From positions 124,001 through 183,033 of the forward strand of contig JAYWIR010000103.1 of assembly GCA_036172245.1 (NCBI GenBank): 59,033 nt of DNA, in the 5' to 3' direction. The notes under the pieces were generated by a model that was not told where the DNA came from, did not search any database, and saw only the letters and a program-made list of their open reading frames with translations. This stretch comes from Raillietiella orientalis. Lineage: Eukaryota. This document shows, piece after piece, positions 9,700 through 47,713 of this stretch (the first letter of the stretch is position 1; each line of letters begins with the position of its first letter). The translations under genes and the position numbers were made by a program.

Positions 9700-9713
9700 T
9701 ACTGCTGGGAAGA

Positions 9714-11375: not shown

Positions 11376-13449
11376 TGCTGCCTGATCGACCACCGAACCA
11401 CACGACGCTTCCACTGGGAGAGACTTCCTGGCACGAGGAGCACCGAGAAAACACGTCCACCCTAGAGCGCACAAGGCGTTCGACTGTGTAGCCCAGAAAC
11501 TTCTCTTGGAGCTCCTGGGTCGCATGAGCTTTCCACCCTCCCTGATCAACTACCTGCGCTCCTGCTGGCGCCATGCCATAATTTCCGTCTTTTTCAGCAG
11601 TCAGAAGGTGCATGGCGTACCGGTGCGGCGGGGCATCAGGCAGGGAGATAGCCTGAGTCCCCTGCTCTTCAGCACCTACTTTGAGTTGGTGCAGACTTCT
11701 TCGAGCTGCTCAGCCGTGGGACCGGACTGCAGGTCAACAGGGCGAAGTCGTCGGTGGTGCCAGTAGGTGCGGCGTGGGCAGGGCAGCAGGACTGGGTCCG
11801 TCTGGGGATCCCCACGGCGAGGTGCTTCAAGTACCTTGGTGTGCCGTTGGGGGACTACTCCCCTGCGGAAGCGTGGTCCAGCTGCCTCCAAAAAATCGAG
11901 ACGGCGATCGGCCCGTTCCTGGAAGGCAAGTTTCACTTGCCGGAACGGGCCGCGGTTTGGAACGCCTTCGCGGCCCCCATCCTCCGCCCCTTGCTTTTTG
12001 TTTGCTTCGCCCCCGTGGAATCAAAAAAGCGGACTAAGGACCTTCTCCGCATAGCTCTTTGGGGCAAGGGGAGGCCCCGAGTCCCACTGAAGGACTTGTG
12101 CGCTCCGCGTCGGGACGGCGGTCTTGGCCTCCTGACGCTGGAGCGCGTGGAGAAGCAGCTGCGGTGGCGAACCCTCGCCATCGCAGCGAAGATGTGGAGC
12201 ACCCCTTGGTGCACTCCGGCCCGCCTCCTGGCCAGCCGTGTGTCCCGGTGCGATGGACTCGCTTCTTTTCTTCTGAGCCGTGGCCGGAAGATGCGAAGAT
12301 GCGGCCTACTGCTCGGGCGCATGGCAACATTGGCCAAGGAGAACAGCTGGATGGTTTGCTGCCCCGCCAACTCCCCCGCCTGGCTGGAGGAGAATATTGG
12401 AACGTGGGCAGTAGTTAACCAGAGAAGCCACGAGACGTGGAATCGTCTCCGATGCAGCCCCTACGCCCGCTGCACGCTGCGGAATCTCCTGGAGAGTCCA
12501 GCAAGATGCACGTGGGCAGAGACGACCTGCCTAGCTACGGCGCTGCACTTCCTAAGGAGGGCACTTCACCGCACTCGGACGCCAAGGTGGCAAGTCTCCT
12601 GCTGCATCGAGGGACGCGAGAAGTTGATCAGCGGCTGGATAACAGGAGAACTGGCCGACGCCACGACCCCGAGGGTCCAGCCGCGAGGATTATTAAGATG
12701 GGGCGAGCTGCTCGCCATCCCCAGGGATGAGCTGAAGTGGCCCCCGGTAATAAAGGAATCCAGGATCCTGCCCCTCAAGTGGCAAGATTCGGCGTTGGTT
12801 TTGTTGCACTGGGGTCTACCCTGCAACGCGCGCCGCTTCTACTGGACGAGGGGAGCTGTGGATCCTGCGTGTGCCATGTGGGGGGAGCGGGAGTCGCTTC
12901 CCCACCTTATTGTGGATTGTGCTGCCCTCCGACCCCTTTGGGAACGGTTCGGGACGACCCTCGGGCTCCCTACGGGCAGCAACCCCAGAGACGTTCTTCG
13001 GCCCCTCCTCGTGAAGGACGCACTGCAGCCAGCCGCAGCCATCGCAGCCTTGTGCTGCGTCTGTGGCTTCGTGGGGGCATGGAGCGACGCCAACAACGAA
13101 GGAGTGGGTCCACAGGCGAGGGATGTCATCCCGTATGCCAAACGCTTCTTGCGAAGAGCTGCCGGATGGCGCCAACTGGGGAATATGCAGACTGACCTCG
13201 AGGGCTTCGTTCGACGGATGGGCCCTCCCCACAGCGACCAGTGATCCCTTCCCTGCCCTCCAGCTTCTTTTTGTTTGTTTCTTTTTATTTTACTTTTTGT
13301 CTTATCCCCATCCCCCTTCGCTGTCGGGGAGTGCCACGCCGGGCTGCGTCCCGGTGTCCCGACAGGTCCTGTGTTTACGGCCGTGGTGGGGCCTTGTACC
13401 ACGCATGGAAAGTTTATTAATAAACGCCCCGGGCGTACCCGGGTGATAA

Positions 13450-16183: not shown

Positions 16184-19165
16184 ACCGGCTTTCTGCGAAG
16201 GCGTGAGGAACGACAGGAACTATCTCCAGGCCCCTGGTTTCTCCAACAAGCCCGACGTCCGTCGCCTGGCGGGAATCAAGGCTGGAGCGGAGAGGCAGGC
16301 CTGGCAATCTGGGCCTGCCTGCTTGCTGAATGAAGGCCAGGAGCACTCATCTCCAGCGCAGGTTTGCCGCATGCTGCGGGATTTTTATTCCTCGCTTTAC
16401 GCGATGAGACCACCAGAGCGCACCTCTGCGCAGCGCCCGCTGCCAGAGGGTGCTCCCGCGTTAAAGGAGGAAGAAATAAACATGTTCCTCCAAGAATTCA
16501 CGATGGCGGAGATAATCTCCGCCATCAGAAAAATGAAAAAACACAAAGCACCAGGGGAAGACGGCCTGCCAGCTGAATTCTACCAACACTTTGTGCCAGA
16601 GCTGGCTCCCCTGGTTGTAAAATTATGTATGCTGATTCGTGAACGTGGGGATGTCCCCAACTCGTTCCGGTCAGCTAGAGTACGTCTCCTTCCTAAGGGA
16701 GGAGACTTGCGCAACGTTGGCAACTGGCGTCCCATCACTGTAGTGAATGCGGACGCAAAGTTGCTCGCCAAACTCTGGGCTGAGCGTCTGGGACGGGTAG
16801 CGGCTTCCGTGGTCAGTCCGGAACAGACATACGCTGTTCCCGGACGAACCATGGAGGCCAACATGTTCCTCGCCAGCACATTCTGGCAGTTCAAACAACG
16901 CGAGGCGCAGCTACGTCGGGAAACTCCAGAACTCTCTATTGACAGGGGGGAGGGAAGCTGGGAAGAAGATACGGCGCCTAAAGCCCTTGCGGTCGCAGTC
17001 GATTTGCGTAAAGCTTTCGACTGCGTCTACCAGGAGCTCCTTCTGGAGCTCCTGGAACGCTTGGGATTTCCGGCCGTCTTCCTGGCCTACCTGCGCTCCT
17101 GCTGGCGCTTCGCGTTCATTAATATTGATTTCAGCGGCCCGCACGTGTTCGGCGTGCCGGTGCGGCGAGGCATCCGGCAGGGTGACAGCCTCAGCCCCCT
17201 GCTCTTCAGCATCTACTTTGAGTTGGTGCTGAGAGCATACAGGGAGACTTTGGCAACTCTGTTGAGCTCGTGTCTTGGCACGCCTGCCGTGTCGGCCTAT
17301 GCCGACGATCTTCTGCTCCTGCTTCCCGGGTCCACCCCGGCATCGGCGCTCGAGGATTTCTTCGAGTTGCTATACCGTGGGACAGGCCTCCAGGTAAACC
17401 GGACGAAGTCGTCGTTGCTTTTCACCGACTCGACGAGGGCCGGACGGTCGGACTGGATCCGCTTGGGGATCCCCACGGGCAGGTACATCAAGTACCTTGG
17501 CGTTCCGTTGGGGGACTTCTGCTCTGCAGAAGCCTGGTCCGACCGTCTACAAAAGGTGGAGCTGGCGATCGGCCCGTTCCGGGACGGGAAGTTTCACTTA
17601 CAGGAACGGGCAACGGTATGGAACGCTTTCGCAGCCCACCTCCTTCGCCCCCTACTTTTTGTGTGCCCTTCCCCTTATCAAATTAGGACACGGACTAGAG
17701 GCCTTATACGGAAAGCCCTCTGGGGCAACCGGAGGCCCCGCGTCCGGCTCAAAGACTTGTGCGCTCCACGCAGGGACGGTGGACTTGGTCTCCTGACGTT
17801 GGAGCGCATGGAGCGACAGCTCCAATTCAGAAAACTTGCCCTTGTGGCAAAGTTCTGGACAGCACCCTGGTGTGCACCCGCAAGACTCCTTGCTCACAGG
17901 GCAACCGGCTGCATCGGATTGACTTAAATCTTGGTAGCCAACGAACGCAGCCTGAACCATTGTGGTTATCAGCTGCGGGATTTGGTTGCCCTGCTGAGAA
18001 ACAACCCTTGGATCTCCTGCATCCCAGCGGACTGGACTACCTGGCTTCAGGAGTCCGTTTCCGCATGGGCGAAGATCAATGGCACTAGCGATGAGGACTT
18101 GTCCTGCCTCCGCAGAGGGAGGCACGCTGGTCAGCCACTCCAGGAGATCGTTTCCAACCCACGGAAACTTCTGTGGGCTTCCTTCACCCCCCTTGCCCAT
18201 TGCTGCCCTCCCTCGGGGAAGTTCGGGACAGCCACCAAGAGGCATCATGGGAAGTGTCCTGCCTCATCGGAGGCAGGAAAAAATCAATGAAGGCGTGGAC
18301 GCCGAGGGAACTAGCGGACGCTAGTACCCCGAGTTTCCCGCCGAACGGACTTTTACGCTGGGGCGCGCTGCTCGGTATAACTCCGGAGGAGGTGAAATTG
18401 CCCCCAGCGTCATGGAAGAACGGCACCTTTCCCCTGCAGTGGCAGGAAACGGCGTTGCTTCTGCTCCACTGGGGACTTTTAAGCAGAGCACGCCTGTCTC
18501 GCTGGACATCGGGGAATGTGGATGCTAGTTGTGCAGAGTGCGGGGAAAGGGAGACCTTCCTTCACTTGATTCTGGAGTGTGTTGCCCTCCGCCAAATGTG
18601 GGACAGAATCTCGTCGATCCTCAACATTCCGGAGGGTGACCCGAAAAACTTATTCAGACGCCTCCTGACGCGAGATGGCTTGCCAGCCTACGGTAGCGTA
18701 ATAGTGTTCTGCGGCATACGCGGTACCCTGGAGAAGTGGACCGCGTCTAGGAGAGGAAGGACCAGCCGGAATGCCATCCACTGGGCAGCGATCTCCTTGG
18801 AGAAAGCGTGCCGTTGGCGCCGACTTCGAAAACATTTGCCGGCACGTGTTCGCATCCGTGACCGGATGCAAAGGCCTGCTCACGGCGCACCATGATCCCC
18901 TCCCTCGCTCCCCCTTCCCAAAAACATTGCCCTCCAGATGTTTTTCTTTTTTGGTTTTGTTTTCTTTTTATTTTTCCCGCCCCGGCGCCAGTGAAGGACC
19001 TTATCGGTCTGCGGGTCGGTAAGGACAAGTGCTACTGAAGTTCTCTACTGAACTTCTGACGTCCTAAAAAAAAAAAGAAAAACTTTTAAGAACAAAGACT
19101 TTATAAAAAAATTTTGTAAGCTCAAAAGTTTAGTAATAAAAGCCCCGGCTTACCCGGGTGAAAAA
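16184..19165 (+). mobile_element. Non-LTR retrotransposon F, RT to 3' end (ORF2 to 18895 with a stop at 17927 and a frameshift near 18230)
   Basis: 574-aa ORF with PGEDG, DLRKAFD, RQGDSLSP, YADD and YLG. Finger CAECGERETFLHLILEC. 3' end AATAAAAGCCCCGGCTTACCCGGGTGAAAAA. Confidence 0.92.
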
Positions 19166-21235
19166 CCTGCGACAAGAGACCTGAAACCCACGTCTCCCCA
19201 ACCCATGGAGGTGGGGTCATTCCCCACCACAAAATCAGCCCCCGCCACTCCGGCGAGGGCTTGGAATAAAGTGGCCGCGGCGGATCTGCCGGACGTGGCC
19301 GCCGAAGTGCAGGCCTACATAAAGGAGGGCTACAACCCAGCCCTCCTTTAAAAGGTAGGAAATCTTTATTCACCGCTTACAACGCGGAAATTTGTTAACG
19401 CCATCCGTAGGATAGGAATCTCTGACGAGGAGATTCTTGCTTCTCGATTCGGAGCGGCGGGCAGTTCGCGGAGCTGATCTGCAAAGATGCAGCGCTCACA
19501 CACAAACTGCTCTGCACGCCCGTTCCGTTCGAAGGGCGGAATCTCCTCCCAGACACGGTGGATCACTCTATGGTGATCCACCTCACGGGTACAACGGTGC
19601 GGATGACCGATGAAGCCATCCGCACTGAAATCAACAAATTCGCGGAGATATACGCGATGTGGTCAAAGCCCAACGCCTTTACTTATCGAGGAGCATTCAA
19701 TGGGCGAGTGGCCGCGCGCGTAACTCTCCGCGAAAACAAAGAACTTCCTTACAAGCTTGAAGTCAACGACGAGCTCGTTGATATCTGGTACGTGGAGAAA
19801 GAAAAGTACTGTGGACTGTGCAACACATTTTGGCATCTGAAAAAGAGAAGCCGGGACGCCACATGCCCAACCTGCGGCGCGAAGGGACACTCTAGTGCTG
19901 TGTGCACGAAAAACGCCGCTACAACGCCTGAAACCCCTATTTTAAAAAAAGGGAAGCAGGCAGAAAACAAACCAAACAGTGAAGAACAGACAAACTCAGA
20001 AGAAGCCGAACAAAAGGAACAGGAGAATCAAAAGGAGACTTCTGAACCAACCGTCGGCGAGGAAGGCTCAAAACTAGTCGCAACCTAAAGAACAAAAAAT
20101 CCAAATGCTAGTAATGAAAAAACAAAAAAATCCACAAATCAGAACGCTAGGAAGCCGAAAAAAACAGCGAACGGCGAAAAAAAAATTACGCCTCGAGAAA
20201 TAACAAAGGAATGCCGCGTTAACATCGAGCGCGTTCCGTCGATCGAACGTCGATCGGCAAACGCGACTCCCGTAACCGTCGCGAACGCCGCGGAACCGCC
20301 GCAGGAATCCTGCGACAAGAACGTGAGCAGCAGCGACGAGTAAAACTTCGCGAAGGCGGCGGAGGAACTCGCGGCCATCTTAATGCAGCCGCCTAAGCCT
20401 GCAGAGAAGGCCGTCAGACGTCCGGCGGAAGCCAAAGGACCGGAAACCTCCGAGTCCGAGGCGGAAGGTGGAAACGCTCCCACCGTCGCCCTCCCGAAGA
20501 GGTAGGCGGGCCGGAAGTCCCGCAACCCTATGCGCGTCGCTCCCCCTCAGGCTGAGGAGGAGGAAATGCGCTCGGGTAGCGAGGAGGCGATGTCCGCGAG
20601 GTCGCGGTATCCCTCCGTGGAAACCGCCCGGTCCGATCTTCCGATCGACCTCAGTCCGCCTACCGACGCTCCGGTCGTTGCGGAAACGCCGTCCATGCAG
20701 GTGGACATCGACCAGCCGCCTCTCGAGCAGGAGGCGGCTACACAATCGCCACCACCATCATTAGCATGATGCGTGGAATCGCCTCTTGCCGGCAGCTGCG
20801 TATAGGCTGTTGGAATGTAAACGGGCTGCGTAGCGAAAGCAAGAGGCGCAGCGTGGCCGATACCCTGCGACCTTTCGACTTGGCACTTCTCCAAGAGGTT
20901 CACGCCCTCAAAGGAGAGGACGTCCAGGAGATCGAGAGGCTCACTGGGGGAACTCTACTTCTGAGATGCGGTAGAGACCACTCCCGTGGAGTGCCCCTCC
21001 TGCTGAAGATCGCCGTATAAAGGCAGTGCGTAGTGTAACTTTCGACGATGAAGGTCGAGTTGGGCAAATTGTCCTGAAGTGGTCCGACTCGATCGACCTA
21101 GTGGTCACGAACGTATACGCGCCCTGCAGCAGACACAGGTGCGGAGAATGCACTGCGTTCTTCAAAGCCCTGCGGCGAGACTGGTTGGCCGAAGCCGGCG
21201 TGCGGCGGGCGCACCTGATAGCAAGAGACTACAAC

Positions 21236-24200
21236 CGAGTGAGGATGTGTTTTTCTTCGCTCTCGTCTCCAGGCTTTCAATCGCTTCATCCTGGTGTCGC
21301 GCATTTTGACGACGATGTCGATCCAACCCGAAGCTACTGAAGTTGGAGGAACAGTATAGGGATCTGTAATCGCAAGACCGACGGCCGCCTCCACTTCGCC
21401 TTGCTCGCCAATGGCGATCAGTTTTGCTGACGTTGCTGCCGCGGCAGCCGTCAAAGGGGGAGCACTCGACGATTCAGAGTTGCGATCATACGTAGCTCAG
21501 GGCTATAGACCCGCTCTCCGATAAAAGGTAAGTTTCTTTCTGGGTTTGACGGGAATCAGTTCAACGATGAACTGACCCGTGTTAACGTGCGGGAGAAGGA
21601 CCTCCTCGCCATTATGCCTTTAAAGGATATGGGCTATTTCAAAGTGCGTTGCAAAGACGCTGCACTTGTGCAACGCTTGATGCGCACCCCGTTGTCGATC
21701 CGTGGCCAGAAGGTCTTCCCGGCCGCCATGGACGACTCATTCGTGGCGGAGATTTTCGACATCGAGTCGGAAATCTCGGATATTGATATTCGGAACGCGT
21801 TGGCGAAATTCGCCACGGTCCATGCGCTGTGGAGGGTGCGTAGCAACCTCAACGACTTCCCGTCCATACACAGCGGAGTCGCTGGAGTCCGGCTTAGAAT
21901 GCCGGACCGCCGTCTGCTGCCCACCAAACTACAGGTGAAAGACACGGTCGTTTACCTTTGGTTCGTGGGCAAAGTAAGAACGTGCGAGCAATGCGGGAAG
22001 GAGGGGCATTGTTTGGATAAATGCCCCTCCGGAAAATGCCGTTATTGCAAGCTTTCCGGGCACCAATTAGGAAATTGCCCCGATCTTTTGCGAAAAAAGG
22101 CAGCCGCGTAGCTTCGACGGACGAAAAAAAAGCGGAAAAAAATCAAAATTTCTCGAAAAACCCGGAAAACGCGCGGCAGAAATCCCGCAAAAACGCGAAG
22201 CGGAATGCCGCCCCAAAGAAGCGGGAGTCCTCGCACTCGAAGCCCCGCGCGCCCGATCTCGCGGCAGGGGAGCCCGAAAAGAAAGGGTGCGGGGAATCCG
22301 GGGCAATGGTAAGTCCCCCCAGGCGCAATACGGGACCCGCCGAAGCACGCACGACTCTATCGGAGTCCGAGCAACCGGCAGGGGCGTCAATGGACAACGG
22401 CGGTAAGGACACTCGCAGTACCGTCAGATCCATTCCTTCACCATCTTTAGTGGCGGAGAAGCCCAAAACAGGTAAGAAGGGTTGTGCCATGCCGACTTCG
22501 ATAGTCAACAAAATAAAATCCGCGCCGCGGTCAAACGCCGCGGAAGCGGAGAAATATTCCACATCGTCACAATCGGAGAGTAAGCTCTCGACTGAAGCGG
22601 ACGCGATTCCTACGAAGGGGTTTAAAGCCCCAAGGAAGGCAGCGCCGATGGCGAGCGTGTCGGAGTCATCGGAAATGCTCGCGTCCAAAGACGCGGGCGC
22701 CTCCAATGATGGCAATGGCGCATCAACGGTGGTAAAAGGGAGCGGAAAAATAAACAAAGCTCCAAAAAACTCACCACAACCTACATCCACGGCTCCAAGT
22801 GAAGGGAGGAAACTCCGTGAAGTTACGAAGACTTCCGCGAAGGTTCCACGTGGAACTGCGCGTAACAACGCGGACATCGCGTGTGCCGGGAAGGAATTCG
22901 TTACCAACAGCGACGCTATGGTTACGGGAAATGACGACAGGACTTCTGTCAAATTAGCATAGCCTGCCACTTCTTCGCGGAAGGCCGAAACTCGATCGAG
23001 CATCGGCCAAGCGGACCCCGAAACGGAGGCCGTCCCGATAGCCGAGACGAGGATAACTCGTTCCAAAGCGTGTGCGCGCCGATCTAAAGTAGGCAGCCAG
23101 CGAACGCTTCCAGCGAAACAACCCGAGGTCTCCACGAAACCCGACGGGGTCAAGCATGGCGTGGAGGCGTTACATGCATGTAGCACGACGAAGGAGGGTG
23201 GCGACCGCGCCCTCCAGCCGATCGTGCTGCTCGCCGTCCACTCGGAGGATAAAGCGAGCAAAAAGCCGCCGCCTTCCCAGCAGTAATGCGGGGAATCGCG
23301 TTTTCCCGTAGTATGTCCGTCGCGTGTGGAACGTGAACGGACTCCAGAACGACGAGAAGAGGCAGTTAGTAGCCAACGCCCTGCGCGCCTTCGACATCGT
23401 GCTCCTCCTGGAGATTCACGTAATCTCCGATGAGCAGGCAGCCGAAATCGAGAACCGCGCAGGCGGAACGCTACATGGCGGTGTGACGACGCCCACACGT
23501 GCGGCGTCGCGTTCCTCGTAAGAGGAAAAATGGCGAAAGCGGTGCGTGGTGTTCGTTTCGACGACGAAGGACGGTTAGGCCAACTTGTCATCAAATAATC
23601 GGAGTCCATCGATTTCGTCGTTAGAAACGTCTAGGCGCCGAGTGGCTCTCGCTACCTCGAAGAAAGAGTAGCTTTCTTTGGTGAGGTGCAGAGCCACTGG
23701 CTGAACAACTCCGGCCTCCAAGTGGCGCACCTCGTCACGGGGGACTTTAACGTCCGTCTGCTCTCCGACGATTCGAGCCGCCCCAGGGAGCGCGCGCTTC
23801 CCATCGAGATGTGCACGTCGGTGCCCGCCGTCAACTTCATGGTCAGCGAACCAGGAATGGAAAGATCGCTCGATCACGTTTTCCTCGACGAAAACCTCCA
23901 TTCACGTGTGAGTAGGAGAGGAAGATTGTTGACTGAGCTTTCTGACCAACACAGGTTGGAGTTTGAGATCTTTCCGCCAGGCAAGGGGCCTCCGTTGCAA
24001 AACAGGAGGATGCAGGCGGATCGGCTTAGCCATCCGGAGGCTGCGGAGCATCTACGTGAACACCTACGAGGCTTCGCCATTCAAGAACTCGCGGACTGGG
24101 ACAACCTCAAAAGATCTGTCCGCGAGTTCTGCTGCCAATTCCCCTTGCACCGGCTTCCACGCGGTTTCGGAGAGGGCGTGGCCAACAGTAGAGACTTTCT

Positions 24201-25688
24201 GCAGGCCCGCACGTTTTCGAGACGCGCGGATGTCGGGCGTCTCGCAGAGTACAAGGCGAGGGCCGAGCGCCAGGTCTGGCAGTCCGGAGCAGCATGCCTG
24301 TTGGACGACAAGGGCCAGGAATGTTCGGCCCCAGCCGAAGTACGCCGCATTGTGAGACGCTACTACTCCTCTCTGTACGCGGAATCCCAGACGGAGGATA
24401 TTCTTTCTGAGATACTCCTGTCTCAGGATGCTCGTGTTGTCGGCAAGGAGGAACGCGAACGTCTCAACGAGCCCTTCACGCCGGATGAATTCTCTTCCGT
24501 CATTGCTGGGCTGAAGAGACGAAAGGCGCTAGGAGGATTTCTTCGACCTCATTCGTCGGGGAGCGGGCGTGAGCGTGAACAGAGAGAAGAGCGTGGTCGT
24601 TCCTGTGGGTACGTCGTGGGAGGGGCAGTCCGACTGGATCCGCCTGGGGATCCCCACGGGCGGGTACTTTAAGTACCTTGGCGTTCCGTTGGGCGCTTTC
24701 GGCGCAGCCGAAGCGTGGGCGGACTGTCTTCAGAAAGCAGAGTTGGCCATCAGCTCGTTCTTTAACGGCAAGTTTACCTTGCAGGAACGGGCGACTATAT
24801 GGAACACCTTTGTGGCCCCCCTCCTCCGTCCCCTGTTTTTTGTTTTGGACCCCCCCTATGCGGCAAAACCGCGGGCTAAGCGCCTGCTCAGGAACGCTCT
24901 CTGGGGTCCGGCGAGATCCAGGATCCGCCTTAAAGATTTCGTTGCTCCGCGTCGGGATGCTGGTTTGGGCATCCTGACAATGGAGCGAATCGAACTGCAG
25001 GTGCAGTTCCGAGTGCTGGCACTGTGTGCTCAGCTTTGGACATCTCCCCTGTGTGTGCCTGCACGCATTCTCCAGCGGAGATGCGCCGGCAGCGGAGCAC
25101 TGCTCTGGCTTTTGCGGGGCACCCAATACAGGAAGCGAGGTTTTGGGCTTTCATTGCGGCAGTTGAGCTCACTTCTGGAAGCCCATTCGTGGATCTTCTG
25201 CCGCCCAATGAACTTCGAAGCTTGGCGGCAGGAGTTTGTGGAATCCTGGGCAACGTTCCAAGGAATGCTCCCTGAAGCTCTTTGCCCACTGCGCCATCTT
25301 CTTCCGCGATCTTTGGAAGAAGTACTGCAGGACGAGGTGATGTTTTCTATACATTGATCACCGGTTACCGCTGAGCAGCGGCCAACCTGTGATCAATGTC
25401 GTACCCTCCATGAAGTCATTTTTGTGTTTTCTATTGACACCCGCGTCCCCATTGGCACCGGAACATTTCAGGTTCTCCCCGTTTGAATCCCCGTGAGTAC
25501 GGAGCCTAACTAAGGACCCGTTACCATTCCCTCCAGTTTTTCTGTTTTCGTTTGTTCTCCGCTTATTCCTCCCATGTTGCTGGCGGTTTGTTTACCAGGC
25601 CTGCGTGCCGGTAATTTCTCTCTGTTTCCTGTCAATCTGTTGGTTGGGGAGATTGTTTCTGACCGGTTAATTGTGACCGGGTGAAAAA
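21236..25688 (+). mobile_element. Divergent non-LTR retrotransposon H, both ends present, degenerate, RT core deleted; sense insertion at the GDFN motif of G
   Basis: 5' end cgagtgaGGATGTGTTTTTC. ORF1 ~21315-23286 with CEQCGKEGHCLDKC and CRYCKLSGHQLGNC. TAATG at 23284-23288. EN motifs WNVNG and GDFN. Deletion near 24530. 3' end CCGGGTGAAAAA. Confidence 0.88.
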
Positions 25689-25997
25689 TTTCAATCTACG
25701 GACGGAAACACAAACCCACTGAAGGCCCTTCGTCGTATACACAAAAGGTGAGATAACCGCAGTTAAAGCATTCTAGGGTGCACCATGTCGGACTTGGATA
25801 TCTGACTGATAGGTAGACTCTGTGGTGTACTTGAGCATGTTTAGCATGCTATGCAGTTGCAGTACAATTTGAAGAGCTGGGGGTATATGTATGATGTGCT
25901 TCATGCATGTTGGTCTAGGGTGGCGGGAAGGGCTAATCACTCTGTGATAATACCTAATGTTCTATTTGTTTTTGCAGGTATTGTTGCCTGATTGGTG

Positions 25998-27250
25998 ATG
26001 GCAGCGGCAAGTGAAGACATGTCAGCAACTTTTGAGGAATACAGCTCCAGCTTGCCGGACCTCGATGGTGACATCGAGATAGGGCTTACAACTGGAACAG
26101 ACATAGCCCTCCCAGAAGACCGCCGGTTCCCTGTGTATCAGCCTACAAATTCCCGAGCCACGATTAAGAACATTCGTGCCTCGGCTAACGGATGGTTATA
26201 CAGTGCCAAGCACTTTAAGGATGCCCAGCTTCCGCTCATGTTTAATGGCATATACGCACTGCTGACATACGACTTAATCCGATTCCGCTCGGTGAATGGT
26301 AACCTGATTCCGGATGGTGACTGGAAACCGACCACCCAGCATTACCATATGACACACACACAGAGGACGGCTAGTCAGTCTTTGCTCAACCAACAAACTG
26401 CGACCAACCGCATTGTAGTGATGGTGGCTACCATGGTTTCTTGGTGGCTCACCAATCATAATACCGGGGTGAAGAAAGATAGTTCAAGAGGAGCAGGGTA
26501 TGCACTAAAAGTGTCGCGCTCTCTGTTTGCCCGCACGCCACTTCCCGAAGAAAAGGGGATGGACATCGCCCATACCCTCGGTCACTATTGAAGTACCCTG
26601 AGTATCATGGAGCTGGCCGGATTCACGCATAAAATTCCATCTGTATCGATAGAAATCCAAGGACCCCCTTTTAAACCTATATCCATTTCACAGAATGCGC
26701 TCCTTAGATTCTTGTCCCCTCCAGCTGCTAAGCACAGGCATGCTGTGGCGTACCAGGCTTTTAAACGGCTTGTAAATTGGGCACAGGCGGCAAATTGTCC
26801 GGAGATAGAAAACATGCTATTTCTGGGCGAGGCGTACGCCGAGATAATGCTTAATTTCAAGCATTATCATATTGGGGCAAAGCACATAACTGGACAAGCT
26901 AGTACAAACTTCAGCGATGCTGATGCAGACGCTACTCTCGGACGACTGGGCTCATTTATGCTGAACGTCTACCCAAAATCAACACTATGCCTCTCGCCCC
27001 ATATGTCGCAGCAGGCCGTGGAATCAAAAGAGAACCCCTCTCCTGAATGGGACGCATTCTGTGCAAAGGTCCCAAAGGAGCTGTCTTGAAAACCAATCGA
27101 GATGATATATCCAAACCTGGGGACAGACAAATTTCGGAAATCAGAACAAAACTCTATGAGGCAATTAGGACATTTGAACACAAAATGCCTGGTGTGGCAA
27201 GCGGGAGGCAGCATGAAGACATTGTTCCAGCAGCTGAGCCTATGCATTGA
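25998..27250 (+). pseudogene. Endogenous viral element: Qinviridae-like (negative-strand RNA virus) nucleocapsid/structural protein with one stop (26589-26591) and one frameshift (~27075)
   Basis: Motif series WWLTNHNTG, HTLGHY*ST, LRFLSPPAA, YHIGAKHITG, STLCLSPH. It matches my recollection of qinvirus segment-2 proteins (NHHTG, GHW.ST, LR...PAG, YH.GA.YLTG, TL..SP). No search was run. Confidence 0.72.
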
Positions 27251-27414
27251 GTGCTCACTGGATGATACTCAGACATATAATTTATGTGAGAAATTGACGA
27301 AGATGATAAGATTACAACTAAAGCTTCTTGTATGTTTTGTGTGTAATTATTTGTGTGTAATCTTAGGTAGGAGTAGTTGAAACAAAGGTTTTGGTTTACG
27401 ATGGCGTGGCGACT

Positions 27415-28926
27415 TTTCGCAGCGAAAGAGCGGGCTAAACGTCTGCTCAGAAACGCCCTCTGGGGACCGGGAAGATGCAGGATCCGCCTGAAAGATTTGG
27501 CGGCACCACGTCGGGATGCTGGTTTGGGCATCCTGACAATGGAGCGAATCAAACTGCAGGTGCGGTTCCGAGTGCTGGCACTGTGTGCTCAGCTATGGAC
27601 ATCCCCCGTGTGTGCCTGCACGCATTCTCCAGCGGAGATGCGCCGGCAGCGGAGGACTGCTCTGGCTTTTGCCGGGCACCCAATACAGGAAGCGAGGTTT
27701 TGGGCTTTCATTGAGGCAGTTGACCGCACTTCTGGAGGCCCATTCGTGGATCTCCTGCCGCCCAATGAACTTCGAAGCTTGGCGGCAGGAGTCTGTTGAA
27801 TGCTGGGCAGCATTCCAAGGAATGCGCCCTGAAGATCTTCACCCCCTGCGCCATCTTCTTCAGCGAACTTTGGAAGAAGAAATGCAGCACGAGGTGTAGT
27901 TTTCTACCCTGGCTGCCACGCCTCTCGCCGCAGCGCTGTCTGCCCTCAGGGCAAGAAACGACAGTTGCCAACCGGCGAGGTGAGAGGTTTGCTGCACGAT
28001 AGCGGGAGAAACGAAACTCCTTGGAGCCGGACGCCGCCACTCCTCGTTCTGATGCAAAGGGACTCCTCCGGTGGGCAGAACTTGGTGTCACCCCCGAAGA
28101 ACTTGTAGTCCCTCCACAGTGTACAGACAGTTCTCTGCTCCCCCTTGCTTCGAAACAAGCCGTGCTGCTTTTCGTTCACTGGGGTTTTCAGTGCAACGAG
28201 CGCTGGCATCGTGTCTCCGGGGGACTCGCAAATGCGAACTGCGTTCGGTGAGTGACGACGGAGTCGATCCCGCACCTACTTCTGGACTGCGGTGTCCTAC
28301 AAAGACCTTGGCGAAGGCTGGCAGCAGCACTATCGCATCCCGTGGACACCGCAAGAGACTTGCTGCGACGATTCTTCACGCCGAGCGGACTGTCTACAAG
28401 CGCAAGGATTGCAACCATCGGTTGCATACGCGCCATAGTTTCAGCCCGTCAGGCGCTGGTAATCAACGGGCAGCATCAACAGGTGGTCGGCAAGGCAGCC
28501 TCCTATATGGAAGCGGCCGCCAGATGGCCTCAATTGACCAAGGACATAAAAAACGATCTCGCCGGCATACAACGTCGGTTTACAGACGCTACCTAGCAGC
28601 GCACCCGGTGACCCTTTCCCCTCGCTCCCATCGGTTTTTTTTTTCTTTTTTTTCCCACTTCGGTCCTCTTAGGCTCCGGAACGTTCTAGGTGCTCTCCCT
28701 TGTAAATCTCCGTGAGTACCGAGCCTCACCAAAGACCCGTCACCCTTCCCTCCAGAGTTTGTGTGTTTGTATTGTTATCCCTTTACTCTCTCAATGTTGG
28801 CAGCGGTTAGTTCACCAAGCCTGTGTGCCGGTAACTTCTCTTTGTTCCTTATCGTTTCTTTGCTTGGGGACATCGTCCTTGACCGGTTTATTTAAAATAA
28901 ACGCCCCGGCGTGACCGGGTGATAAA
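27415..28926 (+). mobile_element. 5'-truncated H-family retrotransposon J, directly fused to the 3' end of the qin-like insert
   Basis: AAKERAKRLLRNALWG... is highly similar to H 24860-25340. ORF2 ends at 28596. 3' end AATAAACGCCCCGGCGTGACCGGGTGATAAA. Confidence 0.9.
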
Positions 28927-29343
28927 TTTCAACCTCCGCCTGCTGTCAGGTGATGCCCACGCACAGGAGCGGACGGCCAACGAATTGTGCGCTGCCATGC
29001 GCACGCGCAACTAGTTGGGTGATCTCCCGGGAATGGTCAACAGCATCGACCACGTTTTTCTGCATGCTGCCGTGTCCCCAAGGGTCCTAAACGGGAGAGT
29101 TGCGTCGACGCTGTCGGAGCATTCCCGGCTGATATTCGAGGATTGCCCGAGCGACAAAGGACCCCCTTCCAGGGCGTATGTCTGCCTGGGGACTGGACGC
29201 GACCCTCAGGTACGAAAGAACACCTTCGCCAATTCCTGAGAGGCGTCACCCTCCAGAATCTCGCTGACTGGGAGCTTTTTAAGGCCTCGGTCCGGGAGTT
29301 TTGCGAGGAGTTCCCCTTGCACCTCCGCCCCCCTGATTCGGGG

Positions 29344-30028
29344 TTTCCACCCGGGTATGACCGGGGCGTTTATTGAAAAAATAAAACTCTACAAGACGTG
29401 GTACGAGGCTCCACTAACGGCCTAACAACACCGGACCCGCCGGGACGCAGCCCGCCGTGACTCCCCTCGGCAGTGGAGGGGGATGTGGGCGAAAACAAAA
29501 AATAAAATAAAAACAAAGAAAAAACAAAAAGAGTTTGGAGGGGAAGGGATCACATTCCACTGGGAGGAGGGTCCAACCTTCGCAGGATTCCCTCGAGGTC
29601 CATCAGCATTGAACCCAGCTGGGGCCATCCTTTAGCTCTCCGCATGAAGCAGACCGCATAAGGGATGACATCCCTCTCGATAGCGTCCAATCCTTCGTCG
29701 CATGCATCGCTCCAGGCCGCCACGATGCCTCCGATGCAGCACAGTGCTGCCACGGCTGCGGCTGGCTGCAGGGCGTTACGCACGAAGAGATGACGGAAAA
29801 CGTCTCTGGGTTGGCTGTCCACCTGGAGCCCGAGGATCGTCCCGAACCGTTCCCATAGGGTTCGGAGGGCAGCACAGTCAACAAGTAGGTGGAGGAGCGA
29901 TTCCCGCTCCCCACACCTTGCACACTCAGGCCTTACACTTCCCGCGTCCAGTGGAAGCGGCGCGCGTTGCAGAGTAAACCCCAGTGCAACAGTAGCAGCG
30001 CCGACTCTTGCCACTTCAGGGGGAGAAG
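29344..30028 (-). mobile_element. 5'-truncated retrotransposon E (D/K-like 3' end) with a 12-bp TSD, antisense in G
   Basis: TSD CCTGATTCGGGG at 29332-29343 and 30029-30040. Finger CARCGERESLLHLLVDC. Terminal hairpin present. Confidence 0.93.
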
Positions 30029-30585
30029 CCTGATTCGGGGACGGGGTCCGTAACGAACGGGCATATTTGCATGCCCGCTATTACGGAAGGACCCACAATG
30101 TCCGTCGCCTGGCAGAGTACCGAGCCGGGGCGGAGCGCCAAGCCTGGCAATCCGCGTCGGCCAGCTTGCTGGACGACCAGGGCAGGGAGCACTCGGCCCC
30201 GGCCGCGAAGCGCAACCTCGTGCGGAGATTTTATTCCTCCCTTTACGCCAGAGCCTCCGCGGAGCAAGACGCCTCCCGGCGCATGGTTCTGGCTGGTGCC
30301 CCGGGAATAGGGGAGGCGGAGAAGAAAAGCCTCGACGAGCCTGTTACGACCGGCGTAATTCTCGCCGGGATTAAAAGGCTGAAAAGGCGGAAAGCACCAG
30401 GGGAGTACGGCCTGCCCGTGGAGTTTTTCCAATGCTTCGCGGCAGAGTTGGCACCACTGGTGCTTCAGTTGACAAGGCTGATCCGAGACGAAGGTGATGT
30501 TACCGCCTTGTTTCGGTCAGCCAGGGTGAGGCTCCTTCCCAAGGGAGGAAACCTCAGAGAGCTCAGCAACTTGCGTCCGATAAAT

Positions 30586-30870
30586 ATGGAAGCCACACAT
30601 AGTAGAAGAATCTGTAAGTCATACCAAGGATATGGATTTTGTGCATATAGTCACCACTGTTGATACACACATAACTACGGAGATGCAACTCTTGAAAGTA
30701 TTGCAGCAATGTTAGACTATATAATAGGCAATATGAGGGAAATAAGACACAATGTGTGTAACATATCTCGAAGATATAGTATATATGATTACCTGGATGC
30801 CAGGAGAGCAAGATCGATGAGTAAAGCCTCTAGAAGTTACCAACATCAAGACATTAAGAAAAAAAAATAA
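30586..30870 (+). pseudogene. Small (~94 aa) CCCH zinc-finger ORF with one internal stop, ending in ATTAAGAAAAAAAAA; putative retrocopied mononegavirus mRNA
   Basis: MEATHSRRICKSYQGYGFCAYSHHC*YTHNY gives C-x8-C-x5-C-x3-H. The frame stays open after the TGA at 30661-30663 to the TAA at 30868-30870. Confidence 0.6.
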
Positions 30871-30949: not shown

Positions 30950-32220
30950 CACAGATCCAGTATGCGCTGCTTCATCCCTGGTCCCCATCGGCACGTGCCA
31001 CAGGATAGCGGCGCTCCCTTTTACGTTTGAGGTGCTCTATCCCCCGGCAGCCCTCATCCGGTCCTCCTGTTCCCCTATTTTTTGGAAAACCTCACACGGT
31101 CAGACTGCCGAAAATGCTATGTATCGCAGAATCTTCTCCGAACCCCTCTCAACTCATTGCACTTCGTGTGCATCCTGTGTGGTATTAGTTTTGACCATTC
31201 CCATCTTCTCAAAACCCATTGCAAAGCGAAACACTCAGGTGCTGGCAAATATGCTTATTCAACTGGCAATTCTTCATGCAGAAAGATTTTCGCCCCTCTG
31301 TTCGACTGTCGCTCGCCTACTAATCCCAATGGCCACTCCTCTTCCCTTCACCCTCCAGAACACAGCCCCAAGATTGATTCCTCCATTCCTTCCTTCATGG
31401 AAAATGAAGAGGCGTTCCAACGTCTCTTTAAGGATTTTCAGGAAAAACTTGCACCTAAGCCCAGCCCTATAGATGACCAAAGTCTTCATAAATCCACTCC
31501 CTCATACTCGGACATCTTCGCGTGAACCAAAAGTTTTCCTCAAGGAAACTCCTCAAACTTCTTGCCGCACTGGATGCAGAACTACTACTCTGCAGCGATG
31601 ATCACAGCTGAGCATATCTCTCCCCCCCAGCTCGCTGCTACTCCTTCCCCGATCGGATGACAAAGTTCGAGGCGTCTCCATTCCCTCTTCAACGAAGTTT
31701 GATGATTCTTACTTGGTTACCTCCATCACAGCTCACGACGCCCTTTCGCCTCTCCTAAACAATCGTGTATACAACTCAACTCCCCGCTCCTCTTGGATTA
31801 CAGAATGCTCTGAGTCCAAGAATTTCACCCTTCCTGAGAAAAACGGTCCCCCAAGATTCCAAATCAAAGTCTCAACCTACCTTTAACATTCCCCTATAGC
31901 CACTTCTTCCTGACTTTCTCCTTTTTATGACCTGCGACGCCTGACCTCCTTTCCTCTTTCAAGAGCGAAACAACGCGTGGGTGCAGCCATTCAATTGCTT
32001 GATAACCTTTTCAACTCCACCCGACAGCTGGTGGGCTCCACCCACCTGACTTATCTAATTCCACCATCAAGTCAGGTTATACCAGCTACAACATCTGGAA
32101 GCCCTCATTGCTTTCCGAATAATTCAAGTCCTTCACGATAAGGACTTTCGCCAGAAACCGCGTTGCCTATGAATTTCCCACGGGATCGGTTACTCAGCAA
32201 TCTTGGTAATAAGTATTACC
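30950..32220 (+). pseudogene. Decayed C/T-rich coding sequence with a C2H2-like finger; origin unknown, possibly RNA virus
   Basis: CILCGISFDHSHLLKTHCKAKH in ORF 31082-31525. Further open stretches follow (RSDDKVRGVSIPSSTKFDDSYLVTSITAHDALSPLLNNRVY). Strong pyrimidine strand skew unlike the flanks. Confidence 0.4.
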
Positions 32221-32221
32221 C

Positions 32222-32940
32222 AGATTGCATCTCGAACGGAGCAGAGGAACCCCTGAACAAGCTGAACAATACTGCCAAAAGGAAGACGAAAATCCATGGA
32301 CTTACGGAACACTACAACTACAATCCAAGAAATCAATACATAAACAGGTAAACTTTCTAATATTTCAATATAAAAATCTTGCATTTTCAGATGCAACAAT
32401 AGATATTAGATGGCAGGAGCGAAAAATGGATATGGAGAGAAAAACCCGAGATATACGACAAACAGGCTATTTGTAACTGATAGCATTAGATTTATTAAAT
32501 ACTTCCAAACAGACTCCATGGAATTAAAACAACTTCAAATATGGCAAAAAAACCTTTTAGACATATCAAAAGACCCCAGCGACAGAGGTAACCACTGGTA
32601 CAGCAACTGCCAAGGAAACTCCGGGAAAACCACTATCGCAAAGCACATTTATCTCAACTACGAAGCACTATATCTCAACTACGACGCACTATATCTCAAC
32701 AACTGCAAAAAAACAGACGCATCATATATGTACGCAGGAAAAAGATAACAAGCATCGACCTTACAAAAGATGTCCAGGAACTCATAAACTACGGACTGAT
32801 TGAATCCATCAAAAATCATCTATGCTCCACCAAATACCAAGGACACTTTGAAATGTTCTCCCGTCCCCATGTAATTATTTTTGCAAATACCGACCCCAAC
32901 TATGAAAACACGTCATCTGATAGATGGATTGTACTTATGA
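32222..32940 (+). pseudogene. rep: Endogenous CRESS-DNA-virus Rep fragment (HUH motif III plus SF3 helicase) with a 43-nt intron at 32348-32390
   Basis: HLERSRGTPEQAEQYCQKE (motif III). Walker A GNSGKTT. Walker B region IDL, then INYGLIESIKN...TKYQG. Motif C HVIIFAN. Arg-finger region SDRW. Contains stops and frameshifts. Confidence 0.88.
32649..32700 (+). repeat. 21-bp tandem duplication inside the Rep relic (YLNYEAL-YLNYDAL-YLN)
   Basis: atctcaactacgaagcactat atctcaactacgacgcactat atctcaac. Confidence 0.9.
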
Positions 32941-32959
32941 CATCTGCCAAACCATCGTC

Positions 32960-34200
32960 CACCAACAAACCACGAGGAGTTCGTAGCAGTCCTTGCACGC
33001 ACACAATGACAAGTTCAGGAAACGAGCAAGCATCCAGTTTATGGAAGACTATCGACCGAAACTCCAAGCGGATACCTTCGAGGAAATGGACGTCTCCATC
33101 GGACAACTGAAGAGCTAAACTCTGACAAATGAGCCGGTGACCACTAGTGGACTTGGATTGCTTGGTAACCTCGCATGGGAAGAGGTTAAACTCGTCAGGA
33201 TATGTGATTCAGCATTGAGTAAGAACGCCTTATATCGTGTGAAACTGTAGATGCAACTGTAGATGCAACTCTTAAAGTCACAGCTGACACCTGTATATAC
33301 CAGCTTCATCTTAAGTGACCGACAATCTAATAGATTTGCCAATTATAACATCGATCAGTCAATCGTTTCAGCTCCTATCAACTTGAAACCTGACGACGGT
33401 AATTAATGGTACTGGCCAATTCACACGTGACAATAGGCGCTACACCGTTTGTTTCGACGTCCTGTGTGCTGTATGAGTTGATAGACCCTTCACGTGAATG
33501 TGTTACAGCGACACCCGAAAAGAGAGCGCGCCCTGAGTGTGCCGTGGAAGTTGTTGCTAAGAAACCCGATTCATTTGTGGTTACCTTCAACAACATCAGA
33601 AAGACTGTGGTAGCTTTGACAGATGCGACCATGGCCATTGACCATAGTAATATTTTGAAGTGAACCCGCTTCCTAACGCCGTTTTCATCAACCATTTGTT
33701 GATGAATCCAGATGAGATAATGCCAGATATGATTACAGATCGAGAGCTGCAATTGTTACGATCAACCGTCAATTCTCTCTACGGTAAGTTTCCCCATCTA
33801 ACTGAACTAATTACTCTCGAAAAGAAAACTCATTCCAACTAGTTAAATCCTTTACTGATTTACAGTTGGTTACGACTGTAGAAAACATTCCCTACATTTG
33901 TAATCTATTCAGTATGACTGAAGATTTCTATTCCGCTGGTCCAGTCACTGATCAAGTAGGAGCGGTTGGACTTTTGAGCTAAGCCGGCGAATGCTCAGAG
34001 TTTAACAACAGTTACAGTCGCCTTGCAGCTTGCATCACATTTCGTTCAGTGACTTCCCAAACCGATTTGGTTATCTATGGAGGACAATGGCTAATGCCAT
34101 CCTCTCGCGTCATTAAGGAGGAACAGGTTTATGTTTTCAACCAGAGGGAAGATTGCATAATCCGCGGTAAGTCCACAGCAAACCTAGGCGGTTGCAATCT
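32960..34200 (+). pseudogene. Decayed coding sequence of unknown, possibly viral capsid, origin
   Basis: Long nearly open + frames: HNDKFRKRASIQFMEDYRPKLQ...GLGLLGNLAWEEVKLVR...; NAVFINHLLMNPDEIMPD...; NLFSMTEDFYSAGPVTDQVGAVG...YGGQWLMP. No recognised motif. Confidence 0.35.
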
Positions 34201-34499
34201 GTTTTTCTCCTGCACGTGGGTCGAGCTGCGGCGAAATAGGTGCTAGGTGTATCCGGAAAAAGGAAACTCCAGGTGCGGCAAACGCAATGATATTGAAACG
34301 CCTACAAATCTTGCAAAAAAGGAAAGAATACAGAAAGATTCTAACGAGGCATACATTAATATACCGTTAATGAAGAAACTCTAAAAAAACTGCCATAGGG
34401 ATGCACATCAAGCGTAATTCTGACGCTCTGACCGTAAATCTGATCGAGTACCTGGATTCTGGATCCCGGCCACAAAACCTTAAGTGGACCTTCCCCGGA

Positions 34500-34870
34500 T
34501 AGTTTGTCTTCGTTAGCTTTCTTGCAGCTTTCTCAAGCATCTCTCACTGCCTTGGTCGGGCTTCGCAGTATATCTGTGAGCTCCGCCGCTTTTTTGAAGG
34601 CGTTTCTCTCGCTTTGCTGCGCAACTTCCCTTCTGTTGGCACAGCGAGCGGAAGTGTTTTCCAGTCACTGCATTTAATCCGCTGATTTTGTTCTTTTCCG
34701 ATGTGCTCGTTTTTGACAACCCCAAGACGAAAAAGACTCTGGATAAAACTGCTTCGGTCCCCGAGGTGGGCAACTCTTTTGTCTATGGGTGAGGACGTAC
34801 ACTCCAGTCGCTGCCGCTGCGACAGCACACGCATGGACCGACAGCCCTGAGCTATAGGTGTATATAGCAA
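34500..34870 (-). pseudogene. Highly decayed retrotransposon ORF1 relic
   Basis: IAQGCR (compare YVAQGYRP in H), SFIQSLFRLGV, RIKC, and AFKKAAEL...KAVR (compare AFERAAEELAA...KAVRRP in A). Confidence 0.45.
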
Positions 34871-34939
34871 ATGACTACAAGCCTGTACTCAGGTATACGA
34901 TTTCACCTCACGACAGAACATCTTTGGCAGCCAATTCGG

Positions 34940-35470
34940 GAGTTTCAAAGAATCAGTTGAGCTCCCTCATACTCATAAGCAGGTCGGCCACATAAGCGAA
35001 ATGCTGTTCTGTTGTCTATGCCCACCCTATCGGCTAAACTCGAAAACTTTTTCGAGCTCATCCATCGAGGTACAGGCGTTAATAGGGGCAAGAGTGTGGT
35101 CGTCCCAGTGGGTGCGTCGTAAGAGCGGCAGAACGACTGGATCTGTCGAAGTATCCCCACAGGCCGCTACTTCAATTACTCTAGATTTTGGGGGCGAGAT
35201 TTCTGTGTAGCGGAAGTGTGATCACTGTCTTCAAAAGGCTGAAATGTCTCCCGGTCCGTTCCTCGAAAGCAAGTTCTTGCCAGCGCGGGTCACCATCTGC
35301 AACAATTTTGCTGCTGCTCTCCTACGCCACTTGTTTTTTCTTCGCCCGCCCCCATACTCGGTGAAGATCCAAGTGCAGCGTCAATTAGGGAAAGCCCTGT
35401 GGGGCGCTGCAAAGTCCCGGATCCGCCTCAAGGACTTCCTGATGCCGCGTCCGGTGGCATCCTTATTGTA
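34940..35470 (+). pseudogene. Decayed H-like RT C-terminal fragment
   Basis: ENFFELIHRGTG..NRGKSVVVPVG...DWI and KALWGAAKSRIRLKDF. Confidence 0.8.
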
Positions 35471-47500: not shown

Positions 47501-47713
47501 AATTCTATAACATGCACAGTAATGAAGAATTAGCAGAAATGCCAAAAAGAAATTTAAAAATATAAACATTTCTCATGGAAGAGTGATTTCGGGACAAAAA
47601 CTCTTTACTCAAATCATGATTCCATACATTCTGAACCCTGCAAACCCTAGAACATCTCCATTGGTAGCAAAACAATCGTACGGTGTCCATTTGACTGAAC
47701 TTATCCGAGTAAT

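Follow-up and report, generated by a model that had tools for sequence, protein, structure and literature searches.

The 59,033-nucleotide (nt) stretch analysed here, referred to as the window, is taken from the genome of Raillietiella orientalis (assembly GCA_036172245.1, contig JAYWIR010000103.1, positions 124,001 to 183,033 of the forward strand). It consists of a pile of diverged copies of long interspersed nuclear elements (LINEs), mostly with a GC content of 55-62% (up to 63%), which surround an AT-rich island. Within this pile lies an insert of 1715 nt whose single long open reading frame (ORF) encodes a protein resembling the nucleoprotein (N) of qin-like viruses (family Qinviridae). 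The insert is in sense orientation between the 3′ end of one LINE copy, A, and a second, 5′-truncated copy, J, and the A-insert-J block divides a third copy, K, into left and right parts (Table 1). A preliminary description of this DNA had proposed that an apparently whole qinvirus-like RNA segment was captured here as a virus-LINE chimera. On the whole, we could confirm its observations in part, and its interpretation was partly supported.

The nature of the insert was examined through its N-like ORF, which was used as a query of 363 residues with X at an internal TGA. An exhaustive HMMER search (phmmer, 1.84 billion representatives) gave 249 relatives at E≤1e-3, 33 of them at E≤1e-30; the best had an E value of 4.2e-47 with 36% identity, and the relatives are usually 360-450 residues long. 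A word-indexed protein search returned one match among 1904 candidates. When 151 relatives were aligned to the window with tblastn, all 152 high-scoring segment pairs fell in one frame within 25971-27272 and none elsewhere. This bears out the N-like ORF of the preliminary description and indicates that there is neither a frameshift nor a second N-like copy in the window. L-like sequence was not found in the window. An AlphaFold2 model of the protein, based on an alignment of 59 relatives, had a predicted local distance difference test score (pLDDT) of 91.0 and a predicted template modelling score (pTM) of 0.85. Comparing this model with BFVD by Foldseek, we obtained eight matches at E≤1e-3. 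The first seven were qin-like S-segment proteins or nucleocapsids, several carrying a nucleocapsid or nucleoprotein annotation (E 3.7e-20 to 3.5e-12, template modelling (TM) score 0.67-0.78, 17-27% identity), which agrees with the qinvirus-like identity proposed earlier. They derive from the Wenzhou, Shahe, Sanxia and Frankliniella qin-like viruses, Beihai sesarmid crab virus 4 and Xinzhou nematode virus 3, with one unnamed; the crab and nematode viruses are listed as members of Qinviridae. The eighth match was to an insect yue-like virus (2.3e-5), and mononegavirus nucleoproteins came next at E>0.01. Among 48,161 PDB representatives, the best 10 chains in a structure comparison were all mononegaviral nucleoproteins, with 197-253 residues aligned and Z scores of 5.0-6.3 that are weak taken alone. 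Foldseek against the PDB gave no match at E≤1e-3, with only pneumo- and paramyxovirus N proteins at E ~0.1. Pfam had no family on the ORF, and across 60 family members no Pfam family was matched by more than one member; a sequence profile gave no match in the PDB at E≤10, and the ESM Atlas no usable match. The best matches are thus viral, and neither cellular nor transposon proteins were found in that place. The ORF is of viral identity, and the insert is almost certainly an endogenous viral element (EVE) derived from the N segment of a qin-like virus. Qinviridae has been placed within Muvirales by the RNA-dependent RNA polymerase (RdRp) of the L segment (PMC10496375, PMC11108086, PMC10721934); the assignment of the insert is based on N, as it has no L segment to place by RdRp.

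The layout of the insert is that of a viral segment, in which a 302-nt leader precedes a 1092-nt ORF, with a trailer behind it. The trailer measures 321 nt after the TGA at 27087-27089, instead of the ~160 nt first estimated. The GC content of the insert is 0.47, compared with 0.552 for LINE A and 0.561 for LINE J. [quoted passage not shown] The two are further alike in an N ORF of ~360-460 codons and an N fold shared with qin-like S proteins and, weakly, with mononegaviral N. The insert differs in being DNA in a eukaryotic chromosome, in the stop within N and the intron-like leader, and in its 17-27% identity to named qinvirid proteins; in a quick tree, its N formed a long unplaced branch inside a family of unnamed relatives. 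Among 15 related loci fetched, 13 were whole contigs of 1.4-2.2 kb (RNA-type), two of these 13 being viral contigs from IMG/VR; four of the relatives are identical to fetched loci (P0005 to L014, P0025 to L015, P0036 to L004 and P0011 to L003). In 10 of the 12 related contigs analysed there was a usable ATG and one ORF of 344-514 codons; leaders were 8-373 nt, and 3′ untranslated regions (UTRs) 229-563 nt in all 12. Querying IMG/VR with relatives P0001 and P0003 gave one spurious 30-residue match and nothing closer.

The preliminary description had considered the ORF to be in need of repair. We found no frameshift in it, and a single in-frame TGA (26589-26591) that falls on a conserved column of the family alignment. 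With this one internal stop in N, the insert copy is now a pseudogene, and with one stop and no frameshift over 363 codons it looks young. Behind the N stop the same frame stays open for 96 codons, a length reached in 8 of 20,000 shuffles, and the other two frames hold 12 and 7 stops. No Pfam family was found on this continuation. It could be a read-through extension, or the TGA at 27087 could be secondary. Three relatives (L001, L003 and L009) have 36-60 in-frame codons after their N stops, partly hydrophobic. A Leptomonas qin-like virus is described with 375 and 231 codons in one frame and a stop between them (PMC10496375). The extensions behind the N stops, here and in the three relatives, recall this arrangement and are possibly part of a read-through product.

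The surrounding LINEs were mapped by tblastn of the window with ORF1 and ORF2 of a full-length copy at 6133-11692 (−). Its frame at 6133-9777 (−) has 1215 residues, with the ORF1 region extending to 11692, and carries RVT_1 (4.4e-21), Exo_endo_phos (7.2e-9) and zf-RVT (1.3e-3, below its cut-off) domains. Nine proteins related to ORF2 were found, merely 21-28% identical. Judging from their alignment to parts of this copy, which has endonuclease and reverse transcriptase in one ORF, A, J and K are LINEs of the apurinic/apyrimidinic endonuclease (APE) type. The copies in the region are 65-90% similar to one another. The tblastn map, together with an Rfam scan of the window that gave no match, indicates that the 'array' of the preliminary description consists of LINEs nested in one another and is not one of ribosomal DNA or the like. 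The 3′ ends of the copies have a common AATAAACGCCCCGG-N4-6-CCGGGTG, a 5-6 bp G+C hairpin located 4-10 nt before the end, and no poly(A); A is an exception, without the first arm. Folding energies of these hairpins were no better than those of shuffles, and the motif is conserved by sequence alone.

Both junctions of the insert can be read. At the 5′ side, it begins at 25696, straight after the end of A, ...GACCGGGTGAAAAATTTCAAT (25675-25695). At the 3′ side, it runs into J without a run of A residues (27381-27420). Comparison with seven other copies places the first recognizable LINE codons at 27416, and 27411-27415 can be assigned to neither side. Homology of J to A starts at 27416-27419 and is 90% over 490 nt, so that J opens at ORF2 residue ~815-817 and has a normal 3′ end. 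These results agree with the earlier description of an insert at 25696-~27414 and of J as a 5′-truncated LINE. LINE ORF2 homology is back at ~27410-27415, and J retains ORF2 residues ~817-1211 and the 3′ UTR. A and J have their entire 3′ UTR in common, down to ...GTGACCGGGTGA[A/T]AAATTTCAA[T/C]. Neither a poly(A) tail nor a target site duplication (TSD) of its own, of the type known from endogenous bornavirus-like N elements, was found at 25696-27415. Instead, a heptamer flanks virus and J solely as one unit, and no repeat brackets 25696-27410 alone. TTTCAA is identical at the two flanks; over 7 nt there is 1 mismatch, and over 12 nt there are 2. A 21-nt pattern of LINE tail plus heptamer occurs exactly twice in the window, and at least two matches were seen in 0 of 100 shuffles, so the TTTCAAT/TTTCAAC bracket noted earlier holds. 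The heptamer is encoded by the target K, though it possibly belongs to the LINE tail instead. At this site uninterrupted LINE copies read ...GGG GAT TTC AAC GTC..., the GDFN motif of the endonuclease, and on the same reference ORF the last residue of K-left is 184 and the first of K-right is 182.

Table 1. Features of the insert and of the LINE copies around it, in window coordinates (TSD, target site duplication; UTR, untranslated region).
Feature	Position	Strand	Description
LINE K-left	19289-21235	+	ORF1 19289-20616; ORF2 residues 7-184 at 20703-21235; stops at GDFN-type codons GAC TAC AAC; mapped by tblastn
Heptamer copy 1	21229-21235	+	CTACAAC, K-left/A junction
LINE A	21236-25688	+	5′ region, ORF1 21527-22081; ORF2 residues 40-443 and 706-947 (internal deletion); 3′ UTR end ...GGGTGAAAAA
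Heptamer copy 2	25689-25695	+	TTTCAAT; TTTCAA perfect against copy 3; likeness extends over 12 nt (to 25700) with 2 mismatches
Qinvirus-like S-segment-derived insert	25696-27410	+ (mRNA/antigenome sense)	1715 nt, GC 0.47; 3′ limit uncertain by ~5 nt
Leader part 1	25696-25747	+	52 nt, A/C-rich 5′ end
Intron-like stretch	25748-25977	+	230 nt; AAAAG/GTGAGA ... CTAAT ... TTCTATTTGTTTTTGCAG/GT
Leader part 2	25978-25997	+	20 nt, to N start codon
N-like ORF	25998-27089	+	363 codons and TGA stop; one internal in-frame TGA 26589-26591
In-frame continuation	27090-27380	+	96 stop-free codons, hydrophobic end, closed by TGA 27378-27380
3′ end of insert	27381-27410	+	G/T-rich, no poly(A)
LINE J	27416-28926	+	5′-truncated; ORF2 residues ~815-1211 (27416-28581) and 3′ UTR; hairpin CCCGG/CCGGG 28905-28919; tail ...GGGTGATAAA
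Heptamer copy 3	28927-28933	+	TTTCAAC; continues into K (CTC CGC CTG ...); F-N codons of the GDFN motif of K
K-right	28934-29343	+	ORF2 residues ~185-320; terminates in 12-nt TSD CCTGATTCGGGG (29332-29343) of a later inverted LINE
Inverted LINE fragment	29344-30028	−	Interrupts K
K resumption	30029-30624	+	After inverted LINE
LINE 3′ ends with hairpin motif	5904-5960 (−), 13405-13455, 19100-19170, 28890-28926, 29344-29400 (−)		Sequence conservation only

This architecture, with the viral part in sense orientation, no poly(A), a 5′-truncated LINE directly 3′ and a heptamer around virus and J, fits the LINE co-integration suggested in the preliminary description, and the insert was very probably integrated together with J by a LINE. 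For stringent LINEs, which recognize a 3′ hairpin, mobilization in trans of an RNA lacking the hairpin is unlikely, and fusion to the LINE tail is the expected route. As the LINE copies here have a conserved 3′ hairpin and no poly(A), such a physical fusion would be expected, going by what is generally known of stringent LINEs. The reading that we favour, with a probability of about 0.58, is that the insert is a near full-length copy of a positive-sense S segment, integrated by an APE-type LINE reverse transcriptase that switched from J RNA onto unspliced viral RNA. Target-primed reverse transcription on a J-family LINE RNA would have started from a nick in the GDFN-coding site of K, a site that appears to have been used repeatedly by the J family. 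After copying ~1.5 kb of J, the enzyme would have left J at about ORF2 residue 815, gone on at the 3′ end of the viral RNA and copied it up to, or nearly to, its 5′ end; the cDNA would then have been joined upstream beside LINE A, the occupant of the same site. Either TTTCAA(C) would have been duplicated in two successive insertions, or the enzyme would have jumped once more, onto A RNA, within a single event. The simplest history would have two steps, insertion of A into the K site and then of virus and J into the same site, with ~6-7 nt duplicated each time. The viral template would have been neither spliced nor polyadenylated. From these features we infer template switching, a viral source of the RNA rather than a host transcript, an unspliced positive-strand template and the completeness of the termini. 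We likewise infer that a template switch made this copy, rather than re-mobilization of an existing chimera.

Several observations weigh against this reading. Neither an L segment nor a cognate exogenous virus is known from the host, and both junctions are known from the assembly alone. The outer copies of the heptamer differ (TTTCAAT and TTTCAAC), and the heptamer could belong to the A/J tail and not be a TSD, in which case K-left continues into K-right without a seam. In the leader there is a candidate spliceosomal intron of canonical appearance, a feature not expected in a cytoplasmic RNA virus. In a genomic contig of another organism (L007), the ATG of an N-like ORF is preceded, at a distance of 20 nt, by the end of a 41-nt GTAAGT...TTTCAG stretch, which fits a host-gene-like source. 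Finally, the complementarity of the insert ends reported in the preliminary description is at chance level in both duplex energy and local alignment, and blastn-short with the termini of L007, L008, L009, L014 and L015 did not single out the ends of the insert.

The possible assignment of the heptamer to the LINE tail raised the question of whether the block was made in a single event. In such an event, A-virus-J would have been produced by serial jumps, from the K nick to J RNA, to viral RNA, to A RNA and to K-left, and TTTCAAY would be LINE tail, with no internal TSD. This would account for the entire tail including TTTCAAY that A and J have in common, for the base-exact junction between A tail and virus, and for the uninterrupted GDFN-type reading obtained when K-left (...GAC TAC AAC) is joined to K-right minus the heptamer (CTC CGC CTG...). 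However, in five further LINE copies of the window GGGTG is followed by 4-6 nt before the end, and not by 12 nt, and the uninterrupted copies with GAT TTC AAC indicate that the target itself encodes the heptamer. In addition, a sister LINE inserted in inverted orientation in K, which belongs to a second family, has a clear and perfect 12-nt TSD, CCTGATTCGGGG, after its ...GGGTGGAAA tail, which indicates that LINEs of this kind do generate TSDs. A weak further point is that two low-depth contigs from a DNA sequencing run (X1) depart from the J tail at 28927, before the heptamer. Taking these points together, we consider the single event distinctly unlikely. Reading the heptamer as LINE tail would remove the TSD argument for the two-step history, but not the chimera, and whichever way the heptamer is read, the LINE enzyme would have copied the viral sequence and inserted it along with J.

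The intron-like stretch of the leader was analysed with criteria that were set after seeing the sequence. It consists of a donor AG/GTGAGA, a CTAAT 20 nt before the acceptor, at least 12 pyrimidines in 15 positions and an acceptor CAG/G. Shuffles of the leader contained a donor/acceptor pair in 13 of 50,000 cases and a pair with a branch point in 5 of 50,000. On both strands of the 59-kb window (118 kb), three pairs were present, and 25748-25977 alone had the branch point. The stretch takes in all 10 ATGs that precede the N start, and the other 72 nt of the leader have none. When the stretch is removed, the remaining 72 nt are a length typical of the leaders of relatives. No donor/acceptor pair was found in the 13 RNA-contig relatives (22.5 kb, plus strand only). 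The intron-like leader may be explained, as far as its sequence goes, by an intron-bearing virus or by the pre-mRNA of an older genomic N-like gene.

In the latter case, the copied RNA would have been the unspliced product of an N-like gene that was older and already endogenous, namely an EVE, domesticated or simply transcribed, whose 5′ UTR contains an intron. It would have become linked to J through a template switch in the nucleus, or through read-through into a J copy behind the gene (5′ transduction), and may have been re-mobilized in trans via the 3′ hairpin of J. A consensus donor, branch point, pyrimidine tract and acceptor, at the frequencies given above, the confinement of all 10 upstream ATGs to the stretch, and 0 of 13 RNA-contig relatives with such a pair would all be consistent with a gene of this kind. 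So would L007, a 64.5-kb genomic contig with an intact 446-codon N-like ORF (9931-11326) just downstream of its 41-nt stretch. It also has a 23-nt tandem repeat after the ORF, and from its sequence it is possible that L007 holds a second, perhaps expressed, qin-like EVE. Furthermore, the best BLAST match of a qin-like RNA2 is reported to be a protein from a nematode genome (PMC12770441). On the contrary, retrocopies normally come from spliced RNA, J-family LINEs look site-specific for LINE sequence so that a J copy behind an unrelated gene is unexpected, N-like sequence occurs just once in the window, and the A/C-rich 5′ end, the G/T-rich 3′ end and the UTR lengths match those of viral segment contigs. 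The yue-like viruses, an outgroup for Qinviridae (PMC10496375, PMC11108086), include viruses of cyst nematodes described with 1-10 GU-AG introns, in both segments and with support from spliced reads (PMC12770441), and the intron therefore does not exclude a viral source. Considering both sides, we regard an older endogenous gene as an unlikely source of the RNA.

In the reading that we favour, the intron could itself be viral. A qin-like S segment would then have a spliceosomal intron in its 5′ leader and be transcribed or replicated in the nucleus, where its unspliced positive strand met the LINE reverse transcriptase. We propose this tentatively and regard it as doubtful. The stretch is similar to the introns of the cyst-nematode yue-like viruses in being canonical GU-AG and in occurring in a segment of a bisegmented group of Haploviricotina. 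Those introns, as reported, interrupt coding sequence and are supported by spliced reads (PMC12770441), whereas here there is one stretch in a leader, known from DNA alone. If the intron is viral, the locus would preserve a complete, unspliced qinvirid segment as a DNA 'snapshot', and would be the first indication that members of Qinviridae, whose replication is listed as unknown in the ICTV profile (PMC10721934), use splicing and have a nuclear phase. A nuclear phase would place viral RNA at the site of LINE integration, and the locus would represent a clean natural case of template switching between virus and LINE, carried out by a LINE that is hairpin-dependent and targets LINEs. The leader would in that case also provide new information on the cellular location of qin-like viruses.

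The completeness of the segment was examined at its termini. The end-to-end duplex of the insert had an energy of −11.2 kcal/mol, which was equalled or bettered by 16% of random pairs of short windows taken from the insert and by 74% of shuffled ends. As a control, the clearly complete relative L015 gave −26.6 kcal/mol (0.05% and 0.1%), and L008 gave −19.9. Local alignment of the two ends gave p ~0.1 for the insert and 0 of 300 for L015. We also compared the base composition of the ends, a test chosen after looking at the sequence. The A+C share is 77% over the first 22 nt of the insert, which ranks in the top 2.4% of its windows, and 23% over the final 22 nt, which ranks in the bottom 3.5%. 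The same asymmetry is present in the best-terminated relatives, L008 (1.1% and 0.2%) and L015 (3.6% and 6.5%). When the 13-nt terminus of L015 was aligned to the window, in a scoring set-up that was flawed, the ends of the insert did not stand out, and a likeness seen by eye to L014, L015 and L007 (C-ACG... followed by an A/C-rich run) was without statistical support. Qinvirid termini are not described in the ICTV profile (PMC10721934). It is thus the composition of the ends, and not their base complementarity, that looks virus-like. With regard to the 'whole' segment claimed earlier, length and UTRs fit, but the panhandle complementarity does not exceed chance; the copy is near full-length, and its extreme termini are unproven.

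We also considered that the chimera might be an assembly artefact, in which reads derived from viral cDNA or RNA were mis-joined into a repetitive LINE region. The region is indeed a nest of LINE copies that are 65-90% similar, and no sequencing run containing the insert, RNA runs included, was found. The contigs of run X1 (word share 0.07) cover LINE parts only and do not cover 25724-27417, and are uninformative on the insert either way. One 151-nt contig of this run is identical to J at 27471-27621, indicating that the same or a very close organism was sequenced, and many LINE contigs are 85-95% similar. On the other hand, the sequence at both junctions is locally unique, the insert has an internal stop and an intron-like stretch, and its flanks, with the A tail, a truncated J in the same orientation and the repeated heptamer, obey a logic of retrotransposition that is not expected of a random mis-join. 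An artefact is therefore highly improbable.

Chimeric retrocopies such as U6-L1, and others that join small nuclear RNA or mRNA to a LINE, arise by template switching during target-primed reverse transcription. The present locus resembles them in its order, 5′-foreign RNA in sense orientation followed by the 3′ part of a 5′-truncated LINE, in a putative target duplication around the unit and in the lack of poly(A) between the two parts. It differs in its viral cargo of ~1.7 kb, in a LINE with a conserved 3′ hairpin instead of poly(A), and in a fixed site inside LINEs. Bornavirus-like N elements, as mRNAs mobilized in trans, end in a poly(A) tail and have their own TSD. These and other nonretroviral EVEs are reported to originate from viral mRNA through the LINE machinery (PMC4964890, PMC3205384, PMC2987831). 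The insert is comparable as a nucleoprotein gene of a negative-strand virus that was reverse-transcribed and integrated by a LINE, but it has neither poly(A) nor its own TSD, is fused to the LINE, and comes from a qin-like source. Tombus-like EVEs located beside TATE transposons in trypanosomatids have been proposed to result from capture, reverse transcription and integration by the transposon (PMC11108086). There, too, a fragment of an RNA virus was captured beside a mobile element; those EVEs, as outlined in that report, are short degraded RdRp fragments next to a DNA transposon, whereas here a near-complete segment is fused base-to-base to a LINE. In the titles and abstracts of a limited library, we found no description of a qinvirid-derived EVE or of an EVE generated by virus-LINE template switching.

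How RNA viruses without a reverse transcriptase enter host DNA has mostly been deduced from old and eroded fragments. At this locus the two junctions can be read base by base, as can the target site and the LINE partner, and the viral part is almost a whole segment. The mechanism, a template switch or serial jumps by a hairpin-recognizing LINE enzyme, is thus directly testable. The locus also links a qin-like virus to a definite eukaryotic genome; according to the accounts available, confirmed hosts of Qinviridae are two trypanosomatid species only (PMC10496375, PMC11108086). If the source was an older host copy, the locus would still present a LINE spreading a virus-derived gene.

Elsewhere in the window, the AT-rich island extends over 31-49 kb (31000-49000) with 33-48% GC, between two GC-rich LINE nests (55-63%), and long ORFs are nearly lacking in it. 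Of its ORFs, 27 were compared with Pfam and gave no family. A 584-residue open frame at 41997-43748 (−) inside the island likewise had no Pfam family, and no homologue was found among the candidates scored. The second LINE family is found at about residue 320 of K, and in the copy at 13439-14395 it occupies the homologous codons (13400-13480). Together with the heptamer sites (21229-21235 and 28927-28933), these insertions (29332-30040 and 13400-13480) look like a LINE-specific choice of target, in which LINEs insert into other LINEs at fixed codons.

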